From Flavobacteriales bacterium (GTDB taxonomy: Bacteria > Bacteroidota > Bacteroidia > UBA10329): 64,000 bases of DNA. The notes under the pieces are model-generated. The model did no database searches. It saw only the letters and a list, made by a program, of their open reading frames with translations, and was not told where the DNA came from. This document shows positions 15,633 to 37,456 of the stretch, in pieces. Position numbers and translations under genes: made by a program. The stretch is from the NCBI GenBank assembly GCA_016124845.1, contig WGMW01000003.1:27824-91823 (forward strand), in the 5' to 3' direction. Every line of letters starts with the position of its first letter. The first letter of the stretch is position 1.

Positions 15633-15635
15633 CTG

Positions 15636-15968: not shown

Positions 15969-16042
15969 TTTTTCGGAAAGCTGGAAAAAGAAAGCGGCCC
16001 GATGGAATTTCCATCGGATCGCCTATTTCAGTGAGTTCAGAA

Positions 16043-16528: not shown

Positions 16529-16615
16529 GGCGTTTTGTTTTTGGTTCGATACAAAGGTGAACCATGCGAGGCAGCCCCACCCATAAGGTTGATTAAGAAA
16601 TGGTCTTAATGTAGA

Positions 16616-17209: not shown

Positions 17210-17269
17210 TTCGCTTTCCTCAAAACGAAAGTAACACAAGTCAAATTTGGAAACGCGCGGTTAATTGGA

Positions 17270-17776: not shown

Positions 17777-17815
17777 TTTTCCCTCCCCAAAACGAAAGTA
17801 ACACTCGAATTTGCT

Positions 17816-18555: not shown

Positions 18556-18626
18556 TCAACACACTTACAAAGGTAATAAAGTTTCACTAAAGGAAACTTT
18601 TTGGAATTGAATTTTGGGTATTGCCA

Positions 18627-18709
18627 AGATGCTGAAATAAATTCAGCATGACGGCCGAGGTTTGCTGCAACCTTACAAATTCTGTCACCCTGAACTTGTT
18701 TCAGGGTCT
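18627..18709. repeat. Two-hairpin element. It overlaps the stop codon of the large fusion gene.
   Basis: AGATGCTGAAATAAATTCAGCATGACGG at 18627-18654 and GTCACCCTGAACTTGTTTCAGGGTCT at 18683-18709. Confidence 0.7.
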
Positions 18710-21700
18710 ACGCCTCAAAACGAAAGTAACATTCGAGCTTGCCTTGTTCTCCAAGCGTTCTACGCTCAGGTTGAACTGCTCGGCAAAGGAGAGAATGCGC
18801 GCTTCGGGTAGGAATTCCAGTTCGTGTTCGGTCTTGTTGAAACCGAAGAGTTTGGTGCTGAAAACCTCCGTCATTTTGGTCACGCCATGTTTCTGCTGCT
18901 CATCCTCAATACCATCGCGGATGATGATGATACCGCCATCGTTCAGCTTTTCGCCACAGCGTTGCAGCAGCGCTTCCTGTTCGGCCGCAGGGAAATAATG
19001 CAGCACATCTTTAATGATGATACAGTCGGCCGCTTCGGGCGTGAACTGCGTCAGATCCGCCTGCGCAAATGAGATGTTGCCACCGCTGTAATGCGTGTTG
19101 GCCGCCACTTGGATCTTCTCCTCATCGTAATCCAACCCGATCACCTGCCTATCGAACGACTGCATTGCAAGCAGATGCGAGAGATAACCGTATCCGCAAC
19201 CCAGATCGTAGGCTTTTCCTTCTCGCGGCACACGCGAAACAATTTCCTCAAAATTCTTTTCGAGCATCATTTTGATGCGCACGTACCATTCCAGCACAGG
19301 ACCTTTGTACGTGTACAGCCGCTGCACCTTATCCGCAAAGAAATCGGCCGTTTCCACCTCCAGACGCACTTTCTCAAACTCTGATTTGAAATGCCTTGAA
19401 ATAGCCTTGGTGCGTTCGCGGTAACCTGTTCCGTAGCTGGCATCATCGGCAGTAATGCGCGGCAGATATTTCATCGTCATCACGCTCTTCTGAACGGAGA
19501 AATCGCCCTTTCGCAACGCGTGATGAATGCCGTGCAGAATAACGGGTTGAATGTCCAACTGCATCTGCTCGGCCAAGTAGAACGCCCCTTTCTTGAAACG
19601 CCCAATGCGGCCGTCCAAACTGCGCGTTCCTTCAGGAAAAATGAGAATGGAATAACCCTCATCGATCTTCTTGCGGATGTTCTCCAGATCCCACGAGGTC
19701 TCATCCTTGGCGTGGATGAATTCCGCGTAACGGATAAACGCCCCGAAAAAGGGCGAATTCCACACCCAATCGTTCGTAACGAGTAGCAATTTGTTGCTGC
19801 TGCCGATCATCACCATTAGATCCACAAATGAAGCGTGGTTCGCAATGAGAATGGCGGGTTTGTCGAGCGGGTCTTTGTCGATCCAACGCTCCTTCACGTG
19901 CCACATCGTCTTGTAATCCGTCCAGATAAACCAGCTGATAAGCGACAACATCCAATGCTTCTTTTTCTGCGATTTGATGGGCAGCGGAAGCAGCGCGATG
20001 AGGATGACAGTGAGGATGATGCAGCCGATGAAGAACCAGCCGAATGCCAGCGCTGCGCGGAAGAAATCGCGGAGTTCGAGCGGGGAGAAGCCGCGTTTTT
20101 TGCGACTGTCGATGAGGATGTCGTAAAGCAGCGGTTGCAGTGTGAGCGATGCGATGACCACGCAGACCATTCCTGTGACCGAAAGCACCGCGATGGAATG
20201 CAACGCGGGATGCTGCGAGACGATGAGTACACCCGTTCCGATGATGGTGGTAATGGCCGAAAGGATGATGGAGCTGCGGTACGAACGCAGCTTGTCGATA
20301 CCGTATTTGTAGCGGCTCAGGATGCCGTCAGAAACGAAGATGGAATAGTCATCGCCCAGCCCGAAAATGAACGTGGTAACCACCACATTGATCATGTTGA
20401 ATTTGATGTGGAACAGGCCGCAAATGCCGAGGATCCAAACCCAACTGACGGCCATTGGTAGGAAGGTTACGAGCGCCAATTCCAAGCGGCCATAGGTGAG
20501 GAGGAGCACCACGAAAACCAGCCCCGATGTGATGAGCAGCATGAGGTTAAGGTCCTCGCTGACCGTATCCACCAAATTCTGAGCGAGCGAACTACGCGCA
20601 ACGGTTTCCAGTCCTTCCAATTGTTCGGTTTTCTCTGTGAATTCCGCTCGTTTGGCTTTCGGAAGATTGACCGTAGAAACCACATTGTAGCCGTCATCGC
20701 CTTTAAAAATGAACTCGCTGTAGATCGGGTCGTTCAGCAGGAAATCGCGGTAGAATTGCTCATCAGCGACTTCGTAGGTTCGAAACAGGTCTTGATAAAC
20801 AGATAGGAATTGAGGCTGAAAGCCGAGTTCTGTTCCTTGCTCAGAAAGATTGAATTCAATTTCCTCATCTAATTCCGAAACGTATTTGTTCCACGTTTCA
20901 ACGCTTGCTTGGATTTGACTTGGAGTGAGAACAACATCAGTCAGAACCGTAGAGCGGATGGAAGTGTCTTTCAAAGCATTTTGAACTCCAGCACTTTTAG
21001 CAACGGCACTTCCAAGGTTTTCATCAGCAGAAAGCACAAATAGACTTTCGCGGTTGCTGTCTCCGACAATAATGTCCTGAGCGCGCTGAAGATGCTCTGG
21101 GAAGTAGTTGATCTTGTTCAGGTCATTCTCAAATTCGACCTCATCCGCGAAATTCCAAAGGAAGACCGTAGCTCCGATAAGACTGAAAAACAGCAACGCT
21201 TTCCACTTGAAAGCCATGGGTTGCTTTTCCTTCGGTTCGGCCATCGGTTTGAACTTGGCTAACGTGGCAAGATGTGGCAGTCCGAGCAATGCGAAGAAGG
21301 CTGTTCCGATAAGGCTCAAACCTGCAAATGTTCCAAAATCGGCAAGCACTTCGGAATGCAGGAAGTTTAGGCAGAAGAAGGCTGCAACAGTTGTGGCGCA
21401 ACCCAGCAACATGGGCGAACTCACGTCTTTCAGCGTTTCCGAAATGGATCCCGTTTCGCGGTAATGATTGAAGAAGTGGAAGCTGTAATCGATGGCAATT
21501 CCCAGCACAATCGTACCCACTGCAACCGCAATGGCCGAAATAGAACCTTGCCAGAGCGTGATCATCGCCAAGGCGAAAACCAATCCGAAAATGGCAGGGA
21601 TGAAGAATAGAATCGGTAAAAAGAGTTTGCGGAAATAGCCAATGAGCAGCAACAGAATGATCACACCCGCCAGAATACCCACCAGGTTCGTATCCTTCTT

Positions 21701-22492
21701 AATACGTGTGGCATTCCCAACGGCAATCACAGGCCCACCAAAGAGCAGGATTTCCTCTTCGCTCAATTCAGCAGAAACCGTATCAACCGCAGCTTGCAAG
21801 CCTTCCACCAATCTTGTGTTTTCGATGGTTTCCGAAGGTGGATGCGTGGGCTTCACGATCATCAGCAGATACTCGCCATCGGCCGTAAATGTGTAGCCAT
21901 CCACAATTTTGAACGTGCTGCCTTCTTCGAGTTTGCTCAATCGTTTCAGAATGGGCGAACCGAGCTGCAGTGGGTCTTTCATTAGGAACTTCTTGGTTCC
22001 CAAGCTTTCATAGCTGCGAAGACGGTTCAGGGTGGAAGTGAGGCGTGTTTCGATGCCATCTCCCGAAAGGTCTTTGAAAAGCGTATCGATCTCATCCGCG
22101 GTCAGAAAATACGGCAGATCACGTAGGTAATTCCCGTAAGCCTGTTCCAACTTCGCGGCATCCGAACTGAACTGAATGTCCTTGAACAATCCTGTGTCCA
22201 ACTGGTTGAATTGCTCCAAAAGGTTCTCACCGATGGAAACAAGTTCATCACTTGACGATTTCGACAACGGCCCGATCGCTACAACAATGTTTCCAGATAT
22301 AGACGAATTGCGGTATAGATTGTCGTACTTCTTGAACTCCTCAGTCCTCGGAAACGTTTTGGTAATGTCTTCCTCAATGTGGAGCTGGCTCGCTTTCCAG
22401 CCCATCATGACGAAAATCACGGCAAACCCAAACAGCCATAACCATTTGAATTTTAGCGTTTTAAGATAAATAGACTGAAGTATCCGACCCAT
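18701..22492 (-). CDS. Tri-domain fusion: an MMPL/RND-type exporter, a lysophospholipid acyltransferase (PlsC-like) and a SAM-dependent methyltransferase. This architecture is a hallmark of flexirubin/aryl-polyene clusters.
   Basis: About 12 transmembrane segments of MMPL type. NHASFVDLMVMI is the HxxxxD acyltransferase motif and FPEGTRS the second motif. The methyltransferase motif I is LGCGYGYLSHLL. The likely start is MGRILQSIYL at 22492. The track extends to 22633. Confidence 0.7.
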   Translation of the reverse strand: MGRILQSIYLKTLKFKWLWLFGFAVIFVMMGWKASQLHIEEDITKTFPRTEEFKKYDNLYRNSSISGNIVVAIGPLSKSSSDELVSIGENLLEQFNQLDTGLFKDIQFSSDAAKLEQAYGNYLRDLPYFLTADEIDTLFKDLSGDGIETRLTSTLNRLRSYESLGTKKFLMKDPLQLGSPILKRLSKLEEGSTFKIVDGYTFTADGEYLLMIVKPTHPPSETIENTRLVEGLQAAVDTVSAELSEEEILLFGGPVIAVGNATRIKKDTNLVGILAGVIILLLLIGYFRKLFLPILFFIPAIFGLVFALAMITLWQGSISAIAVAVGTIVLGIAIDYSFHFFNHYRETGSISETLKDVSSPMLLGCATTVAAFFCLNFLHSEVLADFGTFAGLSLIGTAFFALLGLPHLATLAKFKPMAEPKEKQPMAFKWKALLFFSLIGATVFLWNFADEVEFENDLNKINYFPEHLQRAQDIIVGDSNRESLFVLSADENLGSAVAKSAGVQNALKDTSIRSTVLTDVVLTPSQIQASVETWNKYVSELDEEIEFNLSEQGTELGFQPQFLSVYQDLFRTYEVADEQFYRDFLLNDPIYSEFIFKGDDGYNVVSTVNLPKAKRAEFTEKTEQLEGLETVARSSLAQNLVDTVSEDLNLMLLITSGLVFVVLLLTYGRLELALVTFLPMAVSWVWILGICGLFHIKFNMINVVVTTFIFGLGDDYSIFVSDGILSRYKYGIDKLRSYRSSIILSAITTIIGTGVLIVSQHPALHSIAVLSVTGMVCVVIASLTLQPLLYDILIDSRKKRGFSPLELRDFFRAALAFGWFFIGCIILTVILIALLPLPIKSQKKKHWMLSLISWFIWTDYKTMWHVKERWIDKDPLDKPAILIANHASFVDLMVMIGSSNKLLLVTNDWVWNSPFFGAFIRYAEFIHAKDETSWDLENIRKKIDEGYSILIFPEGTRSLDGRIGRFKKGAFYLAEQMQLDIQPVILHGIHHALRKGDFSVQKSVMTMKYLPRITADDASYGTGYRERTKAISRHFKSEFEKVRLEVETADFFADKVQRLYTYKGPVLEWYVRIKMMLEKNFEEIVSRVPREGKAYDLGCGYGYLSHLLAMQSFDRQVIGLDYDEEKIQVAANTHYSGGNISFAQADLTQFTPEAADCIIIKDVLHYFPAAEQEALLQRCGEKLNDGGIIIIRDGIEDEQQKHGVTKMTEVFSTKLFGFNKTEHELEFLPEARILSFAEQFNLSVERLENKASSNVTFVLRRRP

Positions 22493-22642
22493 CAGAAAAG
22501 ATTGGCAGTCAATGATAGGGAACAAAATTGATTTAACGTTAAATTTGCGCCCCCTGAGAACGGGCTCACCCAAAACTCGCACGTCATAGGACCAACACTT
22601 ACACTCGATCAGTTTTTCCGCGTTGTTGTACAAGGAGAAAAA

Positions 22643-24127
22643 GTGCGATTGTCAGCGCAGCAGCGAGCCGTTGTTGACGAGAGTTTTCAGTTCCTGACCG
22701 AGTTCTCCAAAGACAAGATCATTTACGGCATCAACACGGGTTTCGGCCCAATGGCGCAATACCGCATTGAGAATGAGGAGTTGGAGCAATTGCAGTACAA
22801 CTTGGTGCGCAGCCATTCTTCAGGTCTTGGAGCAGGATTGCCAGATCAGTACGTGCGTGCCGTAATGCTGAACCGACTGAACACTCTTGCGCTGGGTGGT
22901 TCGGGCATTAGCGAAGGTGTCATCGATCAGTTGGTGGCATATCTCGACAAAGGCATTTACCCGTACATCCCTGAGCACGGAAGTGTAGGGGCGAGTGGCG
23001 ACCTGGTGCAATTGGCGCACTTGGCGTTGGGATTGATCGGAGAAGGAGAGGCCAGCTACAAAGGCGAGGTTCGACCTGTGGCCGACATCCTCAAGGAATT
23101 GAAAATGGAACCTTTGATGTTGCAGCTGCGCGATGGATTGGGATTGATGAACGGAACTTCGTGCATGAGCGGCATCGGGTTACTGAATGTCATCTATGCC
23201 AAGCGATTGCTGCGTTGGGCAACATTGATCGGAGCCGTGATCAACGAGGTGGTCCGTTCGTATGACGATAGTTATTCGGAGTTCCTGAACCGTGCGAAGA
23301 AGCACGAAGGTCAGCAGCGAGTGGCGGCCGCTATGCGCAGATGTTTGGAAACGAGCCAGTTGGTGCGCAAGCGCGAAGACCGACTGTTCAAGGATATTCA
23401 CAAGGTGGGCAACGGCAAGCCGATCAAGGAAAAGGTGCAGGAATACTATTCGTTCCGTTGCATTCCGCAGATCATTGGGCCCATTTTGGAGACCGTTCAG
23501 AACGCAGAGGAAATTCTGTTGGATGAGGTCAACTCAACCAACGACAACCCTGTTGTTGACCTCGAAAACAAGCACGTGTATCACGGTGGCAACTTCCACG
23601 GAGATTATGTGGCATTGGAGATGGACAAGATGAAAATTGCCATTACCAAGTTGAGCATGTTGTGCGAGAGGCAGTTGAATTACCTCGTTAACGAGAAGCT
23701 GAACGACATCTTCCCACCGTTCATGAACTTGGGGAAACTCGGTTACAATTTCGGGGTGCAGGGAATGCAGTTCACGGCCACATCAACCACGGCTGAAAAC
23801 CAGACGCTTTCCTTCCCGATGTACGTGCATTCCATTCCGAACAACAACGATAATCAGGACATCGTGAGCATGGGAACCAACGCTGCGTTGATGACCAAAA
23901 AGGTGATCGACAATTCGTTCCAGGTCATGGCCATTGAAGCCGTTGCCATTGCGCAAGGTGTCGATAGTCTAGGCGTCAAGTCGAAGATGTCAGTAGCTGG
24001 GCAGAAGTTCTACGATACGGTGCGCAAGCATTTGGCAACCTTCGAAGATGACAAGCCGCGTTCAGCACAGTTGGCAGAACTGGCCAATTACCTGCATGAG
24101 AATGATCCACCGATTGAGATTTTTTGA
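22643..24127 (+). CDS. Aromatic amino acid ammonia-lyase (HAL/TAL family), probably a tyrosine ammonia-lyase supplying the pigment starter unit.
   Basis: GSVGASGDLV contains the ASG triad that forms the MIO cofactor. It is divergently oriented to the exporter fusion. Confidence 0.75.
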   Translation: MRLSAQQRAVVDESFQFLTEFSKDKIIYGINTGFGPMAQYRIENEELEQLQYNLVRSHSSGLGAGLPDQYVRAVMLNRLNTLALGGSGISEGVIDQLVAYLDKGIYPYIPEHGSVGASGDLVQLAHLALGLIGEGEASYKGEVRPVADILKELKMEPLMLQLRDGLGLMNGTSCMSGIGLLNVIYAKRLLRWATLIGAVINEVVRSYDDSYSEFLNRAKKHEGQQRVAAAMRRCLETSQLVRKREDRLFKDIHKVGNGKPIKEKVQEYYSFRCIPQIIGPILETVQNAEEILLDEVNSTNDNPVVDLENKHVYHGGNFHGDYVALEMDKMKIAITKLSMLCERQLNYLVNEKLNDIFPPFMNLGKLGYNFGVQGMQFTATSTTAENQTLSFPMYVHSIPNNNDNQDIVSMGTNAALMTKKVIDNSFQVMAIEAVAIAQGVDSLGVKSKMSVAGQKFYDTVRKHLATFEDDKPRSAQLAELANYLHENDPPIEIF

Positions 24128-24182
24128 GGTTGATTGAGTTGACAAAGAGATAAGTTGACAAGAGATAGAGTTTACATGTTAA

Positions 24183-26783: not shown

Positions 26784-27026
26784 ATGGACAAGCAGCAGAT
26801 CATCGATACCGTAAATGAGTTCCTGATAGAGGAATTCGAGGCAGATGCGGCCGACCTTGTGGCCGATGCCAACATGCACGAAACACTCGACCTCGACAGT
26901 CTCGATTATGTGGACCTCGTGGTGCTTATCGATGAGAATTTCGGTTTCAAAACCACAGCCGAAGACTTCCAGACCATCAAGTCGTTTGACGACTTCTACA
27001 ACTTTATTGCCTCTAAGGTGAGTTGA
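26784..27026 (+). CDS. Acyl carrier protein.
   Basis: 80 aa. LDLDSLDYVDLVVLIDE contains the phosphopantetheine attachment Ser in DSL. Confidence 0.75.
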   Translation: MDKQQIIDTVNEFLIEEFEADAADLVADANMHETLDLDSLDYVDLVVLIDENFGFKTTAEDFQTIKSFDDFYNFIASKVS

Positions 27027-27089: not shown

Positions 27090-27151
27090 TGTCACCCTGA
27101 ACTTGTTTCAAGGTCTAATTCAATAGATGCTGAAACAAGTTCAGCATGACG
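27090..27151. repeat. Two-hairpin element at the left edge of the island.
   Basis: GTCACCCTGAACTTGTTTCAAGGTCT, then AATTCAATAG, then ATGCTGAAACAAGTTCAGCATGACG. This is the reverse complement of the copy at 45585-45644. Confidence 0.75.
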
Positions 27152-27305
27152 AGCGGCATGTGCGTTTGGGTAGGCTGAGCGGAGCCGAAGTCTACAGAGG
27201 TAGGCTTGGCTGTACCCTTCGATTGCCCTCAGGGTACGGCTGCTCGCACCACGTTTTACCTTTGTTGATTTTGCGGAAGACGCGTTTGCAAAATGCTGAG
27301 TGGGG

Positions 27306-27454
27306 GTTGCATGCCACTCTATGGTGATTGCATGCCAGCCGTTCGGTGAGGCATACCACCGAGACGCTGAGGCATCCCAGAAAGACGCGGAGGCATACTG
27401 GAAAGACGGGATTGCATACCGCAAAGACGGGGAGGCATGCCAGCTATTGGTGGA
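27306..27454 (+). repeat. Seven degenerate direct repeats of 21 bp, iteron-like.
   Basis: GGTTGCATGCCACTCTATGGT, GATTGCATGCCAGCCGTTCGGT, GAGGCATACCACCGAGACGCT, GAGGCATCCCAGAAAGACGCG, GAGGCATACTGGAAAGACGGG, ATTGCATACCGCAAAGACGGG, GAGGCATGCCAGCTATTGGTGG. Confidence 0.6.
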
Positions 27455-27547
27455 TGAAAACCGCTTTTTGACAGTTGAGAATGGGTTTTCTTTCAGATTA
27501 TTGTTAAGTGCAAGAAATAATTTGGTAAGCCCGTTAAGAAACTAGAT

Positions 27548-30500
27548 GTGAGCTTTCAGAAGGAGGATATGACCTTTTGGAAAGAGGGTATGGGGTTTTG
27601 GAAGGTGCATATTAATTCATCTTATGTTCACTTTTCCCATAATAGTTTGCATATTGTCAAACCATTGATCTACAATACTTCACCGGCAATGAAAACCACA
27701 CTATTTCATATTCCGCCCATACGACTCACAGCGGCAGTGCTTGAAAAGAAATTGAAAGAAGAGATTGAAACAGAAAACAAGTTTCAAAATGGGGTTTGGT
27801 CAGTGCAAACGAAAGAACATGGATTGCTTGTGGACCTTTCCCAGTTACGTTGGGTTGAGTTCGGGGCTGCTGCTCAATTGTTGTTGTTAATTGAAAGTGC
27901 CTTAAAGCAAGATGTGTCTGTGGATATTGCAATGCCTCTGGATCAACCTTCTTCCGGTGAGAATAAGAAAATGTTAGAAATCCAAATTTCCAATCCAAGG
28001 GTTCATCGACAGATGCAAAATGTGGTTGGCCAACGTAGAGTTGCAAGGAACTTTCTGTATCACATACAGTTTGAACGAGCGGCTATGTGTTACCATGTTG
28101 AAACTGGGGATGTACGAATAATTCGAAAATGCGATTTCCGTTCTGGAAAACCACTGATTTATGATGAGCAAAACGTTCTTGAGCGCGCCAATGTTACGGA
28201 ATCTGATTTCGAATCGAAAAAGACTGATGAAATAAGCTATAAGGCAATTGTACCATTGACTTGGGTTCAAGAGTTGGAAGATAGTCTTGAGGTGAAGAAT
28301 CTAAAAGAGTTTTTGCACGACATTATCGGCAATGAGGAGAAAGGGTTGGCCAAAATTGATGCGCGCTCGATTACAGGTGTTGTGCTAAATGAGTTGGTGA
28401 AAAATTTGAAAGAGCATGCCAACCCATTAGGTGAGAGTTCAACTACCCATGCATTACTTGGGGTAATTCTATTGCCGAACTCAGTGATTGATGAGAACTC
28501 AGTTGGAAACAATGAAAGTTTTTTTAGCTGGCTAAAAGAGGGATATGACCATCATCTCGAGATTTATTTCGGAGATACTGGTCAAGGAGTTGTCAATTCT
28601 CTTAAGAAACAATTTGCCTTATCTGAACAGTCATCGACAATGACTGATGATAATATAGTTCTTTGGGCGTTTGATAAATGGTATAGTAGGAAATCAGAAA
28701 GATTTAGAGGGACTAAAGGATTGTACCGTATTCAGCGAATCGTGAATAAGTACGATGGGTTAATGTCGATTCGCTCTGCTAGGGTTGAAGCCGGTTATCA
28801 AAAAGGTGGATACGATGGCCCTGCGAGGAAGTTTTCCGCAAATGAGTTAGGGTACATGCCGGGTTCTTTCATCAAAATGACCATGGTGCCTTATAGGGAA
28901 CTCGCTAAGGTCAATCCGCCTTTAACAACACCTACAGGAAAAACGCCAGGAGTGATAGTTGAGCGTGTTGAGATCACTGCCAATGATTTACGAGTAGATA
29001 ACTTTTTTGAAAAGCAACACATCGAGCTTGAAGATAGATTCAAGAGCATTAAGGATAGAACTGCGACCGTCTTTATTTTTTTGGATTTCAAACTTGAATC
29101 TATTCAACCAATTTCTGAGAAACTGGTGGAGGATATTCTCAATTCATTAACTCAGTTAAGGCATCCGAATCCATTGGTTGTTTATGGTTTTCCTGAGCAA
29201 TATGGATATGAGAAACTAGAAGGATGCACCGATTCCGTGAATGAGTACTTACGAAGAACATTGGTGGAAAGCGGTCTAAATTTCAACGAGGAAGATTCTA
29301 CAATTCAAGATCCTGAATCTTTCGATAGCGAATTCGAGAATATTGCAGATCCGATTCTGGTTTTAACCAAGGAGGGAGAGCATTCGTGGTGCGGCATCTA
29401 CCAAGATGAAATCATGGAACTTCTTAAGGTCCTTTCTTCCGAAGGAAAGGTGGAAGCTACGTCATACCTCTCTAATAAAGGGGGTAATGAAATTCTTGAA
29501 ATAAAGAAGTTTGTGAATAATGACCCGCTAGTTCATCAATATGCAAATGTGGATGGGAAGCTAATATGGGAACTGCTTTATGGTCTTAACGGTTTGATTA
29601 GATACTATGGAGACAAGTTGATTCAGGAACTTGAGAAACAAGTTTCAGAACAAAAAAAGGGCTATTGCGATATTAGTCCAAATCTGAGTTGGGTTAAGCG
29701 ATGGGTTAATATGGAAACCTTACTTGAATTTGAAGAAGATGGTTTCGGTATTGCTTTGACCTTGTTGTTCAAAAGTAGGCATGGAAATGCGCGTATAGAC
29801 TTGAAATCAATTAAAATTCTCGTTGATAATGAAGAGGCTAGAAAAATAGCGAAACCGTTCTGCAAATGGATGGGGATAGATGTTGATAAGATTGTTGTTC
29901 TAAGTGATGAAGTTGATAGAAGAATACCTCGAAGATCCCCCATTTTCAGCAGAGGGGATCAAGTGTTGATCTTAACAACTCTAATCTCCTCTTTTGAAAC
30001 GGTCAATCGCTTGGCGAAGACGGTGTACAGGGGACTTGCCCATCCGATTGCAATCCTCGGTTTAGTACAGCCCAAAACCCAAGGTTCAGTGAATATATGG
30101 GGACATGATGAACTTGAGATTCTGTCTTTGGCTGAATACGATTTATCTGTTACTCCAATGATGGAATCAATTAAGAGTGGAGTCAAGTTCATTGAGCCGT
30201 ATAGTTATGAATCGATAATAGCGAAGACAAAAGAGGCCTTGATATCAACGGACTTAGGGCATCGCAATCAAGATCTTGATGAGGTACTTGAAATGGTGGA
30301 GAAGGGAAGTGCATTGCATTTTAGTCATGTTGGTAAGAATGCAGGAAGACATTTCACTTTTTACCTAAGTGCAATTGATTTTCTAGCAAAAAATGATGAA
30401 GTCATTATGCAGCGTTACTATGATGAGATTGACAGTTGGGCCGAAAGTCAAGGGATAGAAGACTTTGAAATTTGGACACCAACACCGGTACTCAAGGTTA

Positions 30501-32701
30501 ATCACCTAGAACAAATCTCAAAGCACTTGGAGGAAAGATATCACAAGTATAGTGCTGAATTGGCGGTTTGTGTTGCAAGAAAAGTTATCAAGAGAAACAA
30601 CGTACTTGGGAACTGGGTGTTTTATAACGAGAAAATGCACCGTGGAAGTAAATCCGACAATGTCTTGATAATTGATTGGGGTAGTTTGAATGGAACCACG
30701 GTTCAGCAAATGGTCAATTTTGCTGCTTCGGAGGCAAAGACCAACATTAAGGTTTGCATCCTGTTCTCTCAATTATGGAAGCCTGAGCAAGAGATGCTTG
30801 AGAAAATTGTTCAGGTAAAGCGCAATCCTAGGGTTGAAAATATTCCAGTTGACATATTTACAAATAGCGTCAAAGTTGCTGAGTCGGAGTCGGTGGAAGA
30901 CCTTTCGTCAACCGTGTCGGTTAAATTCCTTTACAGGCTGCCATTGCGTTATTTTGAAATGGAGGAATGCCCGGTATGTGCCCAAATTGAAGCTTTAAAG
31001 CAGTTTGAGGTTCCCAATAAATTGATCAATGATTTTAATGTTTCCCGAAAGGAACGACTTCAAATACGAGATAGGACAACAGAGGTCAATCATAGACCAA
31101 GGGATTTTTACGGTGAGCAACTAACGGGGTCAATCATCTCTGAGATGATGAAGTTCAAGGTTTTGCTTGATGAAGCCTTGTTGTCAACAGAAAAGCGATT
31201 CTTGGTTGTGGAGCATCTAAGGAAACTGGAAGAAGGTTTCCAAGTGGGAAAAATTCAAGGCAATACGGTCGTCCAAGCCGTCATTTATTTTTTGTCGGTT
31301 GAAAAGATATGGATGCACCGCCCACCTTTGGAGTTTCGAATTGCGCGCGATTTAATTGCTCAAATCAGCTTAAAGATTGCTTTAGCTGAGTCTACTCCAA
31401 TGCAACAGCAACTAAAGACTCGATCAAATGTCGTCCGAATAAAGTTTGCTGCGGTAACCGTACTGCGTTCTGCGGATAAAGTTCTGTTTATTGAGAACTT
31501 GGGAGGTATTTTTAGAAGTGCTTTTATTGAAGAAAAGTTTTCCGAAGCAATCGTTCAGAATCTGTTTTATCACTTGCATTCTTTCATTACGCGAGATTAT
31601 CATTCCAGTCAAGAATACTATGATACAATCATCCAAGAGTTGAATGACATAAGGCTGATAGAGGGTATTTCAGATTCTATGCAAGATGCAACTCAATTTT
31701 TAGAACTTATAACCGAAAAACGAAAAACTGGACTTAGAATTCCTTTTGATTCTAAACTGGCGGTAGTTAAAAGTTTAATGGTGCAGAGAAAAAGGAACTT
31801 TGACAGAAAGTACAACCATTATGACATAATTGAACGCTACCGCGCACTTAGCCCAGCATATAGGGGGAAAATTGAGAATTTTATTCAAGGAGTAAACAAT
31901 GATCAGTCGTTTGTGACAACAGATTACTTCCAAAGTTGGTGTCAGAAATTGATGACCGACTGGAAATATGTTGCACAATACCTGAATGATGTGATCTTCG
32001 GTCACCTGGAAAAAATCAAAGACCTCTTTGATAGTAAGAGTTTTAATGTCTATTACATGTTTAGGAGGGATTTGGAAGAGGCAATGCGGCCTGGAGTTGT
32101 TATTGGAAGTAATGATGACTTTACAATTTTGGTCAAACTTATTCAGGATGAACCCAGTGTTTTATTAGAAAAAAATGTATTTGAAAAATACATTGGTCTC
32201 TTAGAAAGCATGTATGTAAATTATTTGAGGTTTGACAAGCGTCAGTTGGAGAACAACTCAGTCTTAAATACTATTTTGTCTCAATTGAATGTTGATTTGG
32301 TTGATAATGTCAATCACGCATTGGAATCATTCAAGGCAATATGTAAGACTGGGCTCGACTACAGTTTTAGTAGGGATGAAGCAACTATTTATCAGGCGTT
32401 TATTTTTGAACCCCTTCTAAAGAATCTGCTTCAACACATTTTCGAAGATAATATTCACGAAAAGGATGAAGATGAACAGTCGCAAACCCCACTTAGTGTT
32501 CAGGTTTCGCTTAAACAGATTGATAATTCATTTGAACTTCTGATTGAGAACTCGGTATCAGATCCAGAACAAAAGAACAACCTGATGGGTGGACTGTCTA
32601 AGTGGCGAGAACAAATATTGGATTTTGATGGAGAGTTGAAGTGGGGTTTTAATAAAGATAGGACCAAATTTTATCGACAGATTATTTTATTGAAATTTTA
32701 A
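27548..32701 (+). CDS. Giant multidomain protein of 1717 aa (1670 aa from the ATG at 27689). It has an N-terminal GHKL/histidine-kinase-like ATPase domain, two PRTase-like Rossmann domains and a long alpha-helical C-terminal region. No family assignment.
   Basis: GHKL N-box GVVLNELVKNLKEHANP, G1 box EIYFGDTGQGVV and G2 box GTKGLYRIQRIV, with canonical spacing. PRTase-like cores: GDQVLILTTLISSFETVNRLAKTV...IAILGLV, and SDNVLIIDWGSLNGTTVQQMVNFAASEAKTNIKVCILFS. The second aligns residue-for-residue with the HGPRT core [21 protein letters not shown]...VKVASLL. A single CPVC motif is present. GC is about 38%, against 50-55% in the flanks. Confidence 0.7.
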   Translation: MSFQKEDMTFWKEGMGFWKVHINSSYVHFSHNSLHIVKPLIYNTSPAMKTTLFHIPPIRLTAAVLEKKLKEEIETENKFQNGVWSVQTKEHGLLVDLSQLRWVEFGAAAQLLLLIESALKQDVSVDIAMPLDQPSSGENKKMLEIQISNPRVHRQMQNVVGQRRVARNFLYHIQFERAAMCYHVETGDVRIIRKCDFRSGKPLIYDEQNVLERANVTESDFESKKTDEISYKAIVPLTWVQELEDSLEVKNLKEFLHDIIGNEEKGLAKIDARSITGVVLNELVKNLKEHANPLGESSTTHALLGVILLPNSVIDENSVGNNESFFSWLKEGYDHHLEIYFGDTGQGVVNSLKKQFALSEQSSTMTDDNIVLWAFDKWYSRKSERFRGTKGLYRIQRIVNKYDGLMSIRSARVEAGYQKGGYDGPARKFSANELGYMPGSFIKMTMVPYRELAKVNPPLTTPTGKTPGVIVERVEITANDLRVDNFFEKQHIELEDRFKSIKDRTATVFIFLDFKLESIQPISEKLVEDILNSLTQLRHPNPLVVYGFPEQYGYEKLEGCTDSVNEYLRRTLVESGLNFNEEDSTIQDPESFDSEFENIADPILVLTKEGEHSWCGIYQDEIMELLKVLSSEGKVEATSYLSNKGGNEILEIKKFVNNDPLVHQYANVDGKLIWELLYGLNGLIRYYGDKLIQELEKQVSEQKKGYCDISPNLSWVKRWVNMETLLEFEEDGFGIALTLLFKSRHGNARIDLKSIKILVDNEEARKIAKPFCKWMGIDVDKIVVLSDEVDRRIPRRSPIFSRGDQVLILTTLISSFETVNRLAKTVYRGLAHPIAILGLVQPKTQGSVNIWGHDELEILSLAEYDLSVTPMMESIKSGVKFIEPYSYESIIAKTKEALISTDLGHRNQDLDEVLEMVEKGSALHFSHVGKNAGRHFTFYLSAIDFLAKNDEVIMQRYYDEIDSWAESQGIEDFEIWTPTPVLKVNHLEQISKHLEERYHKYSAELAVCVARKVIKRNNVLGNWVFYNEKMHRGSKSDNVLIIDWGSLNGTTVQQMVNFAASEAKTNIKVCILFSQLWKPEQEMLEKIVQVKRNPRVENIPVDIFTNSVKVAESESVEDLSSTVSVKFLYRLPLRYFEMEECPVCAQIEALKQFEVPNKLINDFNVSRKERLQIRDRTTEVNHRPRDFYGEQLTGSIISEMMKFKVLLDEALLSTEKRFLVVEHLRKLEEGFQVGKIQGNTVVQAVIYFLSVEKIWMHRPPLEFRIARDLIAQISLKIALAESTPMQQQLKTRSNVVRIKFAAVTVLRSADKVLFIENLGGIFRSAFIEEKFSEAIVQNLFYHLHSFITRDYHSSQEYYDTIIQELNDIRLIEGISDSMQDATQFLELITEKRKTGLRIPFDSKLAVVKSLMVQRKRNFDRKYNHYDIIERYRALSPAYRGKIENFIQGVNNDQSFVTTDYFQSWCQKLMTDWKYVAQYLNDVIFGHLEKIKDLFDSKSFNVYYMFRRDLEEAMRPGVVIGSNDDFTILVKLIQDEPSVLLEKNVFEKYIGLLESMYVNYLRFDKRQLENNSVLNTILSQLNVDLVDNVNHALESFKAICKTGLDYSFSRDEATIYQAFIFEPLLKNLLQHIFEDNIHEKDEDEQSQTPLSVQVSLKQIDNSFELLIENSVSDPEQKNNLMGGLSKWREQILDFDGELKWGFNKDRTKFYRQIILLKF
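27635..27655 (+). promoter_or_regulatory. Candidate Bacteroidetes-type -7 promoter element upstream of the giant ORF.
   Basis: ATAATAGTTTGCATATTG is about 35 bp upstream of the ATG at 27689 and loosely resembles the TAnnTTTG -7 consensus. This is weak evidence. Confidence 0.2.
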
Positions 32702-32705
32702 GTCC

Positions 32706-34355
32706 ATGGATTCATTTGCAATATATTTTTTTGACGATGTAAAGGCTGATCAAAGGCTCATCAAGGATTATATAGAACCATTGTTTGATGGTTTTTCTCC
32801 CTCGAGAACTGTTAGTCCAAAGATAGAGGCGGATATTGAGAAGTTTGAATCAGCATTGTTGGAAGCCCAGAGGATTGACTTGGTCATATTGGATATTATA
32901 GAGAAGCAGGTGGATGCCAAAGGCGATGTAAAACTTGAAAAAGCTGGATTGAAACTCCTAAACAAGCCATTGATAACGGAGAAACTTCGAAGCTTAAATA
33001 CACCTGTTCTAATTTATTCATCAGATGATGATAGTATTCTCGCAGCAAGACAAATAGCTCAAGACCAAGGGATTAAAGTTGGTGAACTTCGCAAGGAATT
33101 TAGTGCAAAAACAGGAGCATTTCAAACTGTAAGAAAGGCAATTGAGGGTATAGTAGATTTTGGTGAACTGTTAGGCAGGTATAAAATAATTTTGACTCCC
33201 AACTTAAGGACACTATCATTGAATGATAGCGTTGGAGAGTCAGTGATTTCAAGTATTCTGGCGAAGTATTCAAGTTTTAGTTCGACCATTCCTGAAAATG
33301 GAAGTATAACTATTAAAGCTCTTACCCCAGGTTGGTCTGGTGCTTATATCTTCTTGGCAGATTTTGGGGCATCAAAACATGTTCTGTTCAAATTGTCGAA
33401 CGATTTACAGGAACTTGGAAAAGAGTTTAAGAATGTTGAGGACTATTATGAACCTCTTAGGTCAAAAACAACGGTCAAAGTTGGCAAAGTATCTCCGAGT
33501 AAACTTCAGTACAAAGGTTGGTCTGCTCTTTCATTTGAATTTGCCTCCGAAACAAATTCCTGTTTTAATTGGTTACAGACCAATCCTACTGATACTAAGG
33601 TTAAGAAAAACCTTAGGACGATTTTTTCTGACACCTGTTTAATGGGACTTTATAAAGTTACTGGAGAGTCAGAGTTGGATTGTAAAAGTACCTTGGATTT
33701 AGTACTGCTAGGACTTTCAAGAAACAAGAAGTTGCAAGTCAAAGCAAGCATAGAAGAGTTACATGGGGTTTTGCTTAACTATAACGCAGATTACGAAAAT
33801 TCATTGCTGCCGCTTGTTTCAATCATCAAGGAAAATGGGTCTTTTGACATGTTGGCTAATGAGCATATGGATCCAGGATTTAAAGCTCAAATATGCCACG
33901 GTGACCTTCATGCTAACAATTTATTGATAGATGCTAATGATGATCCGATTCTTATCGATGCGGGAAGCATAGGTTACGGTCATTCAACCTCAGATGTATG
34001 TCTTTTGATGGTTGATTTATTAATTAGGGGTATTGATCATGGTAAATTGGCGTATTTTGACCTAACGGCTATAGGAGAACATTTTAAATTGTTGGAAAAA
34101 GTTATTGACCAGAAAAAAATCGATTCAAACACAGATTCCAATAAAGGAATCTGTAGAGCGATAAATTACCTAAACCTGAACGTCAATAACTTGGTGGAAA
34201 TTCCCTTTGAACCTTGGGAGTTTTCATTGAACTTGGCGGTTGAATTTGCGAAAGCGGCATGTCGGAACACTTTTCCACCAAGTAAAAGAGTTGTGGCGCT
34301 TTTGGCAGCTGCAAGGGCAATTGAGGAGGCAAATAGTCGATTTAAATCACCTTAG
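32706..34355 (+). CDS. Receiver (REC)-like domain fused to an APH/protein-kinase-like kinase.
   Basis: N-terminal AIYFFDDVKAD...IDLVILDII...TPVLIYSSDDD...ELRK shows the acidic pocket, phospho-acceptor Asp, Ser/Thr and Lys in the order expected for CheY-like receivers. The C-terminal half has a Gly-rich loop LTPGWSGAYIFLADFG and VLFKL Lys. The Brenner catalytic motif is ICHGDLHANNLLID. ILIDAGSIGYG is the DFG equivalent. Confidence 0.65.
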   Translation: MDSFAIYFFDDVKADQRLIKDYIEPLFDGFSPSRTVSPKIEADIEKFESALLEAQRIDLVILDIIEKQVDAKGDVKLEKAGLKLLNKPLITEKLRSLNTPVLIYSSDDDSILAARQIAQDQGIKVGELRKEFSAKTGAFQTVRKAIEGIVDFGELLGRYKIILTPNLRTLSLNDSVGESVISSILAKYSSFSSTIPENGSITIKALTPGWSGAYIFLADFGASKHVLFKLSNDLQELGKEFKNVEDYYEPLRSKTTVKVGKVSPSKLQYKGWSALSFEFASETNSCFNWLQTNPTDTKVKKNLRTIFSDTCLMGLYKVTGESELDCKSTLDLVLLGLSRNKKLQVKASIEELHGVLLNYNADYENSLLPLVSIIKENGSFDMLANEHMDPGFKAQICHGDLHANNLLIDANDDPILIDAGSIGYGHSTSDVCLLMVDLLIRGIDHGKLAYFDLTAIGEHFKLLEKVIDQKKIDSNTDSNKGICRAINYLNLNVNNLVEIPFEPWEFSLNLAVEFAKAACRNTFPPSKRVVALLAAARAIEEANSRFKSP

Positions 34356-34391
34356 CAATAAGGCGTTTGGTAAATAAATGAGAGAAAAAAT

Positions 34392-35321
34392 ATGATGGAA
34401 AATTTTGCTGACCGACTAATACGTTCAGTTGAACGTAAAGCTACTCCGTGTATAGTTGGGCTGGACCCCCGTTTAGAACTCATTCCAGATTTTATTCTTA
34501 CAAATGCTCAGAAAGGGTCGCTGAATGAGGCTATAGCTTCAGCAATCACCACATTTCATACAATCATATTAGACTCAATCCAAGACCTTGTTCCTTGTGT
34601 AAAACCTCAAATTGCCTTCTATGAGCAATATGGCCTACCGGGGATGATTGCATTTGAGAACACAGTTAAGGCTGCAAAGGAGCGAGGACTTCTTGTGATT
34701 GTGGATGCCAAAAGAAATGACATTGGTTCAACCGCAACTGCTTATGCAAATGCGTTTCTTGGTGCCTCGGTTGTGTTTGGAGAGCGTAAACCAATGTTTG
34801 ATGTTGATGCTGTGACGGTAAATGGATACATGGGTGAGGAAACTTTGGTGCCGTTTGTAAATGTTTGCAAGGATTATGGAAAGGGAATTTTTGTCCTTGT
34901 CAAAACATCAAACCCTGGTTCAGGTGATGTTCAGGACCAAATCTTGGAGGAGTCGAAGCTTCCGCTTTATGTAAAGATGGCACGAACGGTTAATAGGTTA
35001 GGAATGGATATGGTCGGTAAAAACGGTTACAGTTCGGTAGGAGCGGTCGTAGGGGCAACTTATTCGGAAGCAGCAAAAGAATTGCGCGCTGAAATGTACA
35101 ACAACGTTTTTTTAGTGCCAGGCTATGGAGCACAAGGAGCCTCTGGAAAGGATGTCGTACATAATTTCAATTCAGATGGTCTGGGAGCCTTAATAAATGC
35201 ATCTCGAAGTATCACTTTTGCTGGTTATGATAAGGATGTTTCGATGATAGAATTTGAAAGTATTATTCGCCAGAATACGGAGGATATGGTGGTAGATGTT
35301 CGAAATAGTTTGAATAGTTAG
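34392..35321 (+). CDS. Orotidine-5'-phosphate decarboxylase, type 2 (PyrF family-2 architecture).
   Basis: PCIVGLDP. VIVDAKRNDIGSTA matches the DxKxxDIxxT signature. VTVNGYMG, VLVKTSNPGSGDVQ, GAVVGAT and LVPGYGAQG are all type-2 OMPDC hallmarks. Confidence 0.7.
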   Translation: MMENFADRLIRSVERKATPCIVGLDPRLELIPDFILTNAQKGSLNEAIASAITTFHTIILDSIQDLVPCVKPQIAFYEQYGLPGMIAFENTVKAAKERGLLVIVDAKRNDIGSTATAYANAFLGASVVFGERKPMFDVDAVTVNGYMGEETLVPFVNVCKDYGKGIFVLVKTSNPGSGDVQDQILEESKLPLYVKMARTVNRLGMDMVGKNGYSSVGAVVGATYSEAAKELRAEMYNNVFLVPGYGAQGASGKDVVHNFNSDGLGALINASRSITFAGYDKDVSMIEFESIIRQNTEDMVVDVRNSLNS

Positions 35322-35327
35322 TCTGAG

Positions 35328-35981
35328 ATGTCGATTAGGTCGATTGTTCCGAAGACAAGGATTGTTTTAGCGTTAGACTGTGAAACTGAGGAGGAATGTG
35401 TTCGAGTTTTAAACAGTTGCTACGAACAAATAGATTTAATCAAAGTTAATTACCCTCTTATTTTATCTGAAGGTCTCCCAATTATTGGCAGGCTTAAGAA
35501 AGTATTTGGCAAGCCAATTATTGCAGATTTCAAAGTTGCTGATGCACCAGTAACGAATAATCGAATCGTGAAATTGGTCAAAGATGCTGGTGCTGATTCA
35601 ATAATGGTTCATGCTATAGTAGGTACTGATGCGATTTATGAAATAAAGCAAATTGGAGGTGGCGAATTGGAAATAATAGTGGTAACGGAATTAACTCATC
35701 CTGGAGGTCTGGAGTTTACAAGAAAGTACGCAGAGGAGGCGGCAAAACTTGCATTGGAGATGGGGTGTTTGGGAATTCAAGCTCCTGGTACTCGGCCGGA
35801 ACAAATTGAAAAACTCAGGCAAATTGTAGGTCAGGACATGATTATCGTGGCTTGTGGTGTAGGAGCGCAGGGGGGACAGTATTCCGAAGTTATTAAAGCT
35901 GGAGCTGATTACGCTATCATTGGAAGGGCGATTTATGAATCAAGTAATCCGTCCTTAGCCATTGAATCTATTATTACTTGA
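35328..35981 (+). CDS. OMP-decarboxylase-superfamily TIM-barrel protein, HPS/KGPDC/type-1-OMPDC-like.
   Basis: RIVLALDCETEEE is the ALD start. PIIADFKVADAPVT matches DxKxxD. SIMVHAIVG. IIGRAIYES is the GR-I phosphate loop. Confidence 0.6.
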   Translation: MSIRSIVPKTRIVLALDCETEEECVRVLNSCYEQIDLIKVNYPLILSEGLPIIGRLKKVFGKPIIADFKVADAPVTNNRIVKLVKDAGADSIMVHAIVGTDAIYEIKQIGGGELEIIVVTELTHPGGLEFTRKYAEEAAKLALEMGCLGIQAPGTRPEQIEKLRQIVGQDMIIVACGVGAQGGQYSEVIKAGADYAIIGRAIYESSNPSLAIESIIT

Positions 35982-36139: not shown

Positions 36140-36380
36140 TTAAATAAGATCGCCACTGCCTCCGCTTCCCGTTAGCGTTTGCAACGCGTGCTTTCTTACC
36201 TGAAAACCGCCATCAGTCCTAACCGTCTGATAACCAGCGTTCTCAGTCCACTCCCGATCTATCTCCGTCTTCTCCCGATCATTCTCGGTCGAGTCCCGAT
36301 CATTCTCGGTCGAGTCCCGATCTATCTCGGTCAAGCCCCGATCTATCTCGGTCAAGCCCACGATCTATCTCAGTCTTGCC
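36140..36380. repeat. Left copy of a large inverted repeat. It has about 110 bp of unique sequence plus an array of six 21-bp tandem repeats (CCCGATCWWTCTCGGTCRAGY).
   Basis: Six tandem units at 36253-36380. 36205-36252 is homologous in reverse complement to 53997-54040. ORFs 36140..36361 (-) and 36179..36481 (+) are 7-aa-periodic translations of the array. Confidence 0.7.
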
Positions 36381-36589
36381 CCAAAAATCTACCCTTAAAG
36401 CACCGATCAACCTCTGTTCAGTCCCGGGTATTCACCAAAGGGCAACAACTCATATCAGTTTTAATTAAAAGATGCCAGTAGAACCGCGGCCTTCCCTCTT
36501 GGCTGGTCAGCCTATCATAATCTGAGCCCCCAAAAGAACACGCAAATCCACGTATCCCCGAACTTCCGAACCTTACTAAATTCGCGCCC

Positions 36590-37456
36590 ATGAGCGAATG
36601 GAGCGGAAAGAGTAGAGGAAACGCCTTAGGTTACTGGTTCTTCATCTTCTTTATGAAGCATCTGGGCCTTGGGTTCACCTACGGTTTCCTGCATTTTGTG
36701 GTGCTGTATTTCTTCCTGTTCTCGTGGAGCAGCAGCAAATGGATCTACCGCTACTACCGCGATGGCCTGCGCTATGGCGTACTGAAAAGCATTGCGGGCA
36801 TTTACCGCACCTACTACGTGTTCGGGCAGGTAATTATAGACAAGGTGGCCATGGCATCGGGCATCAAAGACCGCTTTAACCTAACGCACAACGGGGCCGA
36901 GCACATCCGCAACATGGTAGAGAACCAGACGGGCGGCATTCTTATTTCGGGCCACATGGGCAATTGGGAAATAGCCAGCCACCTGATGCGCGGCTATGGC
37001 GGCAAGGTGAACGTGGTGATGTACGATGAGGAGCACCAGCAGATAAAGAAGCAGATGGACGGCACCACGGGCGGCCGCAAGTTCAACGTAATACCCATTA
37101 AGGACGATATTTCGCACGTATTCCTCATCAGTAAAGCCCTGCTGAACAAGGAATTGGTGTGCATACACGGAGACCGCTTCCGCGAAGGCATGCGTACTCT
37201 CAAAGAGGATTTTCTGGGCAAGGAAGCGCAGTTTCCTTACGGTCCGTTTGCCATTGCCGCCAAGTTCGATGTGCCCAAGGTTTTCGTGTACGGCTTTAAG
37301 ACCGGAACGTACGATTACAGCTTCTACTGCACGCAACCCATAGAGGGCAAATTGAAGCCCGAACTTTTACTCACAAAGTATGTTGATGAAATGGCCCACA
37401 TGGTGCGGAAATACCCGAACCAGTGGTTCAATTTTTACGACTTTTGGAAGCCTTAA
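36590..37456 (+). CDS. Lysophospholipid / lipid A-type acyltransferase (LpxL/HtrB-like).
   Basis: N-terminal transmembrane helix. The HxxxxD-type motif GHMGNWE is present. A typical pigment-cluster acyltransferase. Confidence 0.65.
   Translation: MSEWSGKSRGNALGYWFFIFFMKHLGLGFTYGFLHFVVLYFFLFSWSSSKWIYRYYRDGLRYGVLKSIAGIYRTYYVFGQVIIDKVAMASGIKDRFNLTHNGAEHIRNMVENQTGGILISGHMGNWEIASHLMRGYGGKVNVVMYDEEHQQIKKQMDGTTGGRKFNVIPIKDDISHVFLISKALLNKELVCIHGDRFREGMRTLKEDFLGKEAQFPYGPFAIAAKFDVPKVFVYGFKTGTYDYSFYCTQPIEGKLKPELLLTKYVDEMAHMVRKYPNQWFNFYDFWKP

Follow-up and report, generated by a model that had tools for sequence, protein, structure and literature searches.

A predicted receiver-kinase fusion and its giant partner protein: a two-gene module on mobile islands and a candidate bacterial defence system

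Response regulators with enzymatic outputs are represented by the CheB methylesterase, the GGDEF proteins PleD and WspR, the HD-GYP protein RpfG, and RsbU-type PP2C proteins. Here, we describe a response-regulator-type protein whose predicted output is an APH/TCAD9-like kinase. It is encoded in a 64,000-nt stretch of DNA from a Flavobacteriales bacterium (assembly GCA_016124845.1, contig WGMW01000003.1, positions 27,824–91,823, forward strand), which was analysed as a whole and is hereafter called the window; all positions below are window positions unless a locus is named. The gene, hereafter REC-kinase (32706..34355, + strand), starts with ATG, encodes 549 aa, and lies directly downstream of a gene for a 1,670-aa protein (27689..32701, + strand, from ATG 27689), hereafter the giant partner. 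Like the enzymatic response regulators, the REC-kinase joins a CheY-like receiver at its N-terminus, complete in its active-site residues, to a C-terminal enzyme on the same polypeptide, whereas its partner differs from the canonical HisKA-HATPase sensor kinase of response regulators. The ATP-binding CA boxes in the partner, the adjacency of the two genes, and their co-inheritance are all shared with the classical two-component pair. In the literature searched, no response regulator with an APH/choline-kinase-fold output and no receiver-APH architecture or gene pair was described, though absence from that literature is not proof.

The nearest functional precedent is Detocs, which comprises a sensor kinase (DtcA), a receiver protein (DtcB), and an effector that joins a receiver to a purine nucleoside phosphorylase (PNP) domain (DtcC). 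In Detocs, defence requires both the sensor-kinase histidine and the aspartate of the effector receiver, and phosphotransfer from the kinase to the receiver Asp can gate a defence effector (Rousset et al., 10.1101/2023.01.24.525353). The module described here resembles Detocs in being an operon found in defence islands, in combining an ATPase/kinase-type sensor with an N-terminal receiver that would gate a C-terminal enzyme instead of a DNA-binding domain, and in the modular nature of the effector domain; the acceptor Asp, essential in Detocs, is conserved here. However, on every membership test the module falls outside Detocs. None of the PADLOC Detocs models (DtcA, DtcB, DtcC) matches it, the partner is 1,670 aa long and has neither a recognisable HisKA/DHp nor a TPR sensor, a buffer receiver gene corresponding to DtcB is lacking, the effector is an APH/TCAD9-type kinase and not a PNP ATP nucleosidase, and the hosts are centred on the FCB group and Acidobacteriota. 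A HATPase/REC example from DefensePredictor has a purine phosphorylase as its effector and is hence Detocs-like.

For the kinase half, the closest described family is TCAD9 (PF19974), an APH-superfamily kinase of the vWA-MoxR-VMAP ternary conflict systems. Kaur et al. (2020; PMC7159879) proposed low-molecular-weight substrates for conflict-system APH kinases and counted active APH-superfamily kinases and receiver domains among the effectors of such systems. By profile comparison, TCAD9 is the best-matching kinase family for the clade described here, which is likewise predicted to be a catalytically intact kinase. In contrast to TCAD9, the window protein scores under the gathering score with a match to the catalytic loop only, and its kinase, besides having a different giant partner, is joined to a receiver. 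A scan of 106 neighbour proteins at 16 other loci placed no vWA, MoxR, or VMAP among the 25 most frequent neighbour families listed. The kinase half also shares the Gly loop, the beta3 Lys-alphaC Glu, the Brenner HxDxxxxN motif, and the Mg-binding Asp with APH/choline-kinase-fold enzymes, including MtnK 5-methylthioribose kinase, NahK, PsiK, APH(2'')/(3')/(9), fructosamine-3-kinase, and the lanthipeptide kinase LxmK. However, these small-molecule kinases are only 8–14% identical to it, none of them has a receiver or an obligate giant partner, and its helical substrate lobe is family-specific (W488, K527, R528), unlike theirs.

Receiver and kinase domains of the REC-kinase

Conservation across homologues and a predicted structure both indicate that the REC-kinase gene really does encode a receiver domain (32706..33155, + strand; approximately aa 1–150) fused to what appears to be an intact small-molecule-type kinase of the APH/choline-kinase fold (33183..34352, + strand; approximately aa 160–549). 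The same domain call, a receiver fused to an APH-type kinase, had been made in the first-pass annotation from the letters and open reading frames (ORFs) of the window, and proved correct, as residue conservation, family profiles, and the predicted fold agree. All of the motifs on which it was built were located and their codons verified, namely D10-D11, D63, S105, and K130 in the receiver and PGWSGA, VLFK, HGDLHANNLLID, and IDAG in the kinase.

The window protein taken singly is poorly recognisable. In NCBI, it is named simply "phosphotransferase" (Flavobacteriales metagenome-assembled genome, MAG), and its Pfam matches are confined to about 50 residues around the catalytic loop. The match to APH (PF01636) reaches 29.1 bits against a gathering score of 23.2 but covers only residues 386–435, and that to TCAD9 reaches 31 bits over 50 catalytic-loop residues, below the gathering score of 40. 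NCBIfam APH(3') matches are weak (18.6 against a cut-off of 205). A Pfam scan of the first 158 residues returned neither Response_reg nor any other match, even at E <= 10. With the single sequence, the best match in the PDB had an E-value of only about 0.1, a word-indexed homologue search recovered the REC-kinase itself only, as it did with a 16-member alignment, and a single-sequence AlphaFold prediction was uninformative (pLDDT 40).

Homology became apparent at the family level. When 1.84 billion representative proteins were searched exhaustively with HMMER, 263 REC-kinase clusters were detected at E <= 1e-3, 156 of them at E <= 1e-10. Nearly all of the homologues are 520–580 aa long, which is the same two-domain length. 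Residue conservation was counted in an alignment of 129 full-length homologues, and 89 family members were each scanned singly against Pfam. With the family alignment, AlphaFold2 modelled the REC-kinase at a mean pLDDT of 93.6 and a pTM of 0.88.

Several observations bear on the receiver. The phospho-acceptor position D63 (32892–32894), within "LVILDI" at the C-terminal end of beta3, is Asp in 126 of the 129 homologues. Positions 10 and 11 (D10/D11, 32733–32738) are D or E in 127 and D in 111 homologues, respectively; Asn occupies the second acidic position in 13. Position 105 (S105, 33018–33020) is S or T in 125, and the column at the end of beta5 (K130, 33093–33095) is Lys or Arg in 123 and Lys in almost all. 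The five active-site residues occur together in at least 108 homologues, and a crude count puts those without one of the five at about 16%. K130 is taken as the canonical Lys because QGIKVGELRKEF aligns ungapped to DNIKFEIIRKQW of the closest relative and because beta5 spans residues 125–129 in the model; K135, which took this place in one large MAFFT alignment, was rejected as a gap artefact. In the model, residues 3–149 form a (beta-alpha)5 unit of the flavodoxin-like fold, with a small hairpin insertion (66–78) after beta3. The profile of family positions 1–150 matched dozens of solved receivers in the PDB at E-values of 1e-8 to 1e-4, including NtrC1, ArlR, CpxR, PhoP, Sln1, and CheY, and Pfam Response_reg (PF00072) matched 16 of the 89 scanned members (best E 1.3e-10). 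Since the window sequence alone has no Response_reg match while the family profile matches receivers, the homology is established via the family. Loss of the acceptor Asp among homologues, or a predicted structure without the flavodoxin-like fold, had been named at first pass as what would overturn the receiver assignment; the Asp is kept and the fold is present, so the assignment survives both. By residues and modelled structure, the N-terminal domain thus has every feature of a true CheY-like receiver with a predicted phosphorylatable D63.

The kinase half is predicted to be catalytically competent, with every catalytic residue of an APH/choline-kinase-fold enzyme in place. The glycine loop PGWSGA contains G209 and S211, VLFK contains K229 (33390–33392), E240 follows, the Brenner motif HGDLHANNLLID provides H398, D400, and N405 (33897–33920), and IDAG provides D418 (33957–33959), all on the + strand and with the codons checked. 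G209, K229, E240, D400, H402, N405, D418, and D430 are invariant in all 129 homologues, and W488, K527, and R528 in the C-lobe are conserved within the family (at least 90%). The model has the bilobal kinase fold with a helical substrate lobe, and a Foldseek comparison of it with the PDB supports the kinase fold. The family profile matched spectinomycin phosphotransferase in the PDB over the kinase core (E 2.7e-6), and TCAD9 matched 80 of the 89 members at E <= 0.01 (best 1.8e-14), compared with 79 for APH. The nearest folds are those of sugar- or metabolite-hydroxyl kinases. Among the best viral structural matches to the kinase domain in BFVD are APH-like kinases that are annotated as nucleotidyltransferases or fused to them, such as Bacillus phage G gp311, an NTP transferase from Myoviridae, and the "guanylyltransferase" of Tenacibaculum phage PTm1; these enzymes act in sugar activation, and none has a receiver domain.

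The giant partner and its linkage to the REC-kinase

The mechanically called ORF of the giant partner starts at GTG 27548 and runs through a 21-nt repeat (27545–27592). This start is probably an over-extension, and ATG 27689 is preferred because it matches the NCBI call, the N-terminus of the family, and the point at which the GC content drops. The homologues are all named "hypothetical protein" and have no precomputed Pfam domain. Conserved columns were defined as invariant or near-invariant in alignments of 29–37 homologues.

The N-terminal Bergerat-fold region of the giant partner (28301..28933, + strand) is accepted as a histidine-kinase-type GHKL ATPase module on the basis of its motifs and profile matches. 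The N box (E235/N239/H243, 28391–28417), the G1 box (D296-G298-G300, 28574–28588), and the G2 box (G341-T-K-G344, 28709–28720) are all invariant. In the excised segment, Pfam HATPase_c_5 was matched in eight of 23 members and HATPase_c in five (best E 1.7e-5); the copy in the window itself has no Pfam match for the module. The best structured matches of the segment profile in the PDB were the ATP-binding P4 domains of CheA (E 0.27–0.5). The initial description of the upstream gene as encoding a GHKL protein is therefore borne out by the invariant boxes and by 13 HATPase_c or HATPase_c_5 member hits over the 23 segments.

The other parts of the giant partner, which include a helical region, are assigned tentatively. 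The N-terminal segment (27689..28063, + strand) is STAS-like and contains a conserved "IDLSQVRWV" motif; Pfam STAS was matched in five of 29 members (best E 0.018) and the profile aligned with the MlaB STAS domain at an E-value of about 1.6–2, neither of which is significant. Two phosphoribosyltransferase (PRTase)-like segments lie in 29786..30988 (+ strand), one at about aa 700–860 with "VIILTTxISSSET" and the other at about aa 960–1100 with "IDFGxLTGxT" (D996/G998/G1002). An invariant "HxGxxNxRHFTF" (H880, H888) stands between them and a CPxC motif (C1094, C1097) after them. Pfam PRTase_2 was matched in two of the 29 members (best 1e-3), Pribosyltran in one, and PDB entry 1vch at an E-value of 2.1. 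Both segments were placed by hhalign on the phosphoribosyl pyrophosphate (PRPP) loop of APRT (P 1.4e-3 and 7e-3, compared with P >= 0.018 for controls); the matches are weak though consistent in position, and both assignments are tentative. The C-terminal domain (32366..32698, + strand) resembles a degenerate Bergerat-fold (HATPase-like) domain, with the N-box Asn and a G2-like "GGL...FGG"; in realigned C-termini, the G1 position has Y[DN][SG]T in place of DxGxG. Its profile matched the CA domain of DesK/YocF (E 0.22) and VanS (E 1.3), and hhalign against a DesK fragment gave a probability of 55% and a P-value of 1.2e-4 over 70 columns. The hhalign comparisons were local ones against single reference sequences (SpoIIAB, SpoIIAA, APRT, CheY, and a DesK fragment taken from the PDB profile match), and they yielded matches that were weak but lay at the right positions. 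Full-length profiles of the giant partner gave only non-significant matches in the PDB.

The two genes are consistently linked. In the window, the stop codon of the giant gene (TAA, 32699–32701) is followed by four nucleotides (gtcc) and then by the REC-kinase ATG at 32706, and in most other loci the genes overlap by 8–14 nt, which supports the tight coupling to the giant ORF proposed in the first-pass annotation. Loci were drawn from homologue-bearing contigs and 15 genuine named-genome loci, found with a 16-member alignment subset of the family; their genes were called with a simple ORF caller and compared by phmmer, and 18 of 33 retrieved loci (L024–L041) were discarded as unrelated APH-type kinases sharing only the HGDLH motif. 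In all 16 loci with upstream DNA, a homologue of the giant partner (about 1,600–1,700 aa) lies immediately upstream on the same strand. In one Flavobacteriaceae MAG (locus L011, 5279–10014), the giant gene is represented by three consecutive ORFs (335, 688, and 494 aa) next to an intact REC-kinase, which reflects either a decaying copy or assembly frameshifts.

The hosts include Bacteroidota (e.g., Mucilaginibacter galii and Dyadobacter arcticus), Chlorobium ferrooxidans, Cloacimonadales (Cloacimonadota), Balneola, and Acidobacteriota, and a homologue of the giant partner was also recovered, as a protein only, from Ignavibacteriaceae. Across 13 loci, the pairwise similarities of one protein correlate strongly with those of the other (r=0.94), which indicates joint inheritance and diversification. 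A third gene shared by all of the loci was not found, nor was a conserved stand-alone receiver gene. The giant partner and the REC-kinase form an obligate, co-evolving, and horizontally mobile two-gene module.

Mobile neighbourhoods and the island in the window

The genes around the module at the other loci are rich in mobile elements and defence systems. Tyrosine integrases were found in five loci and a relaxase with NikA/MobC in four. The defence genes include a short pAgo with SIR2-APAZ, GmrSD, type I restriction-modification, MADS, HEC-06, an AbiEii-type ATPase, BrnA, and DNA methylases. From this gene content, the module seems to move horizontally on integrative or mobilisable islands that also carry defence systems. 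In a metagenomic locus (L004), the pair adjoins a short pAgo and its partner gene (832–3680, - strand; PADLOC pAgo_I 3.4e-174), followed by relaxase-like, ArdC-like, RadC, and GmrSD genes (12768–18720) in a compact defence and mobilisation island. Another, unrelated GHKL protein is encoded near the pair in three loci (L010, 153–2360, - strand; L021, 14219–16048, - strand; L023, 1562–2443, - strand), at distances and on strands relative to the pair that vary among them; in L010, the protein is 734 aa long and carries an N-terminal HATPase_c_3 and a C-terminal HATPase_c domain. Such a gene could act in defence independently of the pair, or its product could be an alternative partner in signalling.

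In the window, the module is part of a four-gene island (27689–35981) whose GC content at third codon positions (GC3) is 0.31–0.38, compared with 0.51–0.71 in the flanking genes. The two further genes encode putative orotidine 5'-monophosphate (OMP) decarboxylases (OMPDCs). The first (34392..35321, + strand; 309 aa; GC3 0.34) is of type 2, matches TIGR02127 with 276 bits (cut-off 110.6) and Pfam OMPdecase at 1.3e-29, and has its catalytic DAKRND at aa 105, starting at 34704. The second (35328..35981, + strand; 217 aa; GC3 0.31) is of the short type, matches PRK13813 with 210.6 bits (cut-off 208) and Pfam OMPdecase at 2.6e-42, and has its catalytic DFKVAD at aa 67, starting at 35526. With DxKxxD intact and scores above curated cut-offs, both are apparently active. 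The number of OMPDC genes equals that of the PRTase-like segments in the giant partner. Downstream of the module, the OMPDC pair was found only in the subclade of the window, at loci L002/L003 (L002, 4876–6472) and L007 (3187–4778). Identity between these loci is 60–68% for the OMPDCs, with the second being 68% identical to the copies in L002 and L007, and 27–36% for the core genes. That the OMPDCs are the native pyrF of the host beside an insertion was rejected, since they share the GC3 of the island and their arrangement is kept in L002 and L007; both genes belong to the same acquired island.

The island splits an apparent lipid-pigment cluster of the flexirubin/aryl-polyene type (18701–47198). 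Upstream of it are an MMPL-acyltransferase-methyltransferase gene (18701–22633, - strand), an aromatic amino-acid ammonia-lyase gene (22643–24127), and genes for FabG, a ketoacyl synthase (KAS), and an acyl carrier protein (ACP, 26784–27026). Downstream of it are genes for an LpxL-like acyltransferase (36590–37456), a 4HBT thioesterase, and two more KAS proteins. Just 3' of the ACP gene, an inverted repeat (27091–27150) with 27-nt arms that are 81% complementary and a 6-nt loop is likely the terminator of the upstream pigment operon, in which case the island would need its own promoter. Promoter and terminator scans were at chance level, and the promoter model is not applicable to Bacteroidota.

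Tandem arrays of a 21-nt repeat stand at both borders of the island (27348–27438 and 36241–36375) in opposite orientation. They were considered as insertion scars and rejected, as the same repeat family forms a third array 18 kb away (53915–53996); the arrays are dispersed intergenic repeats of the genome. Two mechanically called ORFs (27300–27545 and 36179–36481) arise from reading these repeats as heptapeptides. Another repeat family, with units of 16/17 nt (GATAGAGTTGAC[A/G]AAGA), occurs at two other intergenic sites, 24132–24176 and 60756–60916.

Possible functions of the module

The constant pairing of the two genes, on mobile islands with many anti-phage genes, makes the module a good candidate for a new defence system of bacteria. 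In the mechanism that we propose, which in our judgement has about an even chance of being right, the module would be a two-component-like conflict system in which the giant partner is the sensor and ATP-dependent transmitter, D63 the switch, and the APH/TCAD9-type kinase the effector. Upon a trigger, probably a phage or other invader, the giant partner would cause the phosphorylation of D63, and the phosphorylated receiver would release or activate the kinase domain. The kinase may then phosphorylate a hydroxyl of a sugar- or nucleotide-like small molecule or of a peptide or protein, so that the invader is blocked or the cell arrested. The two OMPDCs added in the subclade of the window might point to pyrimidine-nucleotide chemistry, and together with the PRTase-like segments they hint, speculatively, at pyrimidine and phosphoribosyl chemistry.

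Several observations weigh against this proposal. In the giant partner, no HisKA, DHp, or HPt domain was recognised in Pfam, NCBIfam, and PDB profile searches, and no invariant His adjoins either ATPase-like domain, with none in the 200 residues before the GHKL module. Candidate His residues elsewhere in the protein are H880, H888, and H1377, and a phosphorelay from the giant partner is plausible. The C-terminal ATPase-like domain is without the G1 Asp, and all domain calls beyond the N-terminal GHKL module are below significance. The closest structural relatives of the kinase are metabolic and resistance enzymes, with no known toxins among them. As for defence, the neighbourhood is suggestive of a conflict role, as judged from raw counts over about 16 loci. 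No homologues were found in sequenced plasmid or phage collections, and no PADLOC model recognised the module, the giant partner having no match and the kinase only a stray one to SduA (E 0.021). The island in the window has neither an integrase nor a defence neighbour and lies within a pigment-biosynthesis cluster.

A more specific version of the conflict proposal, possible but clearly more doubtful than the general one, is that the module represents an undescribed anti-invader family of the FCB group and Acidobacteriota. An Asp-phosphate switch would turn on a kinase that modifies a nucleotide- or sugar-type metabolite, as a chemical defence or for its depletion, the transmitter would lack a canonical histidine phosphotransfer domain and the receiver be phosphorylated in a non-canonical way, and the subclade with OMPDCs would provide the pyrimidine link.

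Two other explanations, both of which we consider unlikely, account for part of the same data. One of them is that the receiver is regulatory but is not charged by the giant partner, either obtaining its phosphate from an orphan histidine kinase or from small phosphodonors such as acetyl phosphate, or serving as a functional pseudo-receiver whose docking or dimerisation couples the kinase to the giant ATPase by direct contact between the proteins; in the latter case, the GHKL module would be a conformational ATPase or a Ser/Thr kinase similar to SpoIIAB/RsbW. The lack of a recognisable DHp or HPt in the partner would fit this explanation, as would the order of the STAS-like and GHKL segments and the "ExxxNxxxH" N box, which by eye resemble partner-switching Ser kinases; hhalign of the giant partner against SpoIIAB was not significant. 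The receivers with Asn at the second acidic position or without one of the five residues, and the separate GHKL protein near the pair in three loci, are also consistent with it. However, the active-site set is near-universal (D63 in 98%, S/T in 97%, and Lys in almost all), which speaks for real phosphoryl chemistry. Moreover, strict adjacency and co-diversification are the hallmark of cognate kinase-regulator pairs, and the neighbourhood contains no other conserved kinase gene.

The other explanation, no more probable, is that the pair is a metabolic module with no conflict role, whose product, made or salvaged, would be a metabolite derived from a nucleotide or sugar. The PRTase-like segments would attach phosphoribose to a base-like acid, the OMPDCs would decarboxylate the products, following the logic of UMP synthase, and the APH-fold enzyme would be a receiver-tuned kinase for sugar or nucleoside hydroxyls. 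This would be consistent with the presence of two PRTase-like segments in the giant partner, the co-inheritance in one subclade of two apparently active OMPDCs and the pair, and the conservation of K527, R528, and W488 in the substrate lobe. However, the OMPDC pair is missing from 13 of 16 loci and is thus accessory, PRTase-like segment 1 is without the acidic PRPP-loop pair, and neither segment is significant. Compared with the OMPDCs, the core genes diverge much more rapidly, and they reside on mobile elements with defence genes, a pattern atypical for biosynthesis; a simple pathway enzyme would also not usually be 1,670 aa long and contain STAS-like and GHKL signalling modules. An ordinary resistance or housekeeping phosphotransferase of the aminoglycoside, macrolide, or choline kinase type with an incidental receiver, as the database name implies, is highly improbable, for although the Pfam APH match exceeds its gathering score and weak NCBIfam APH(3') matches exist, the similarity to APH is limited to the 50-residue catalytic loop, the NCBIfam score is far under its cut-off, the best family match is to a conflict-system kinase clade (TCAD9), resistance kinases offer no parallel to the receiver or to the obligate giant partner, and no homologues were found on sequenced plasmids.

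If the conflict proposal is true, the APH-fold kinase would be a new output class for response regulators, and the module would be a second example after Detocs, unrelated to it, of two-component logic recruited against invaders, with an effector that adds phosphate rather than degrading. A further question would then be how an ATPase partner without a recognisable histidine phosphotransfer domain charges a receiver. The REC-kinase family is small and environmental, and its practical impact is uncertain. The partner family, whose members are all hypothetical proteins of about 1,650 residues, mostly unassigned in sequence and with many invariant positions, is essentially unexplored, and the linkage to OMPDCs provides a concrete biochemical lead.

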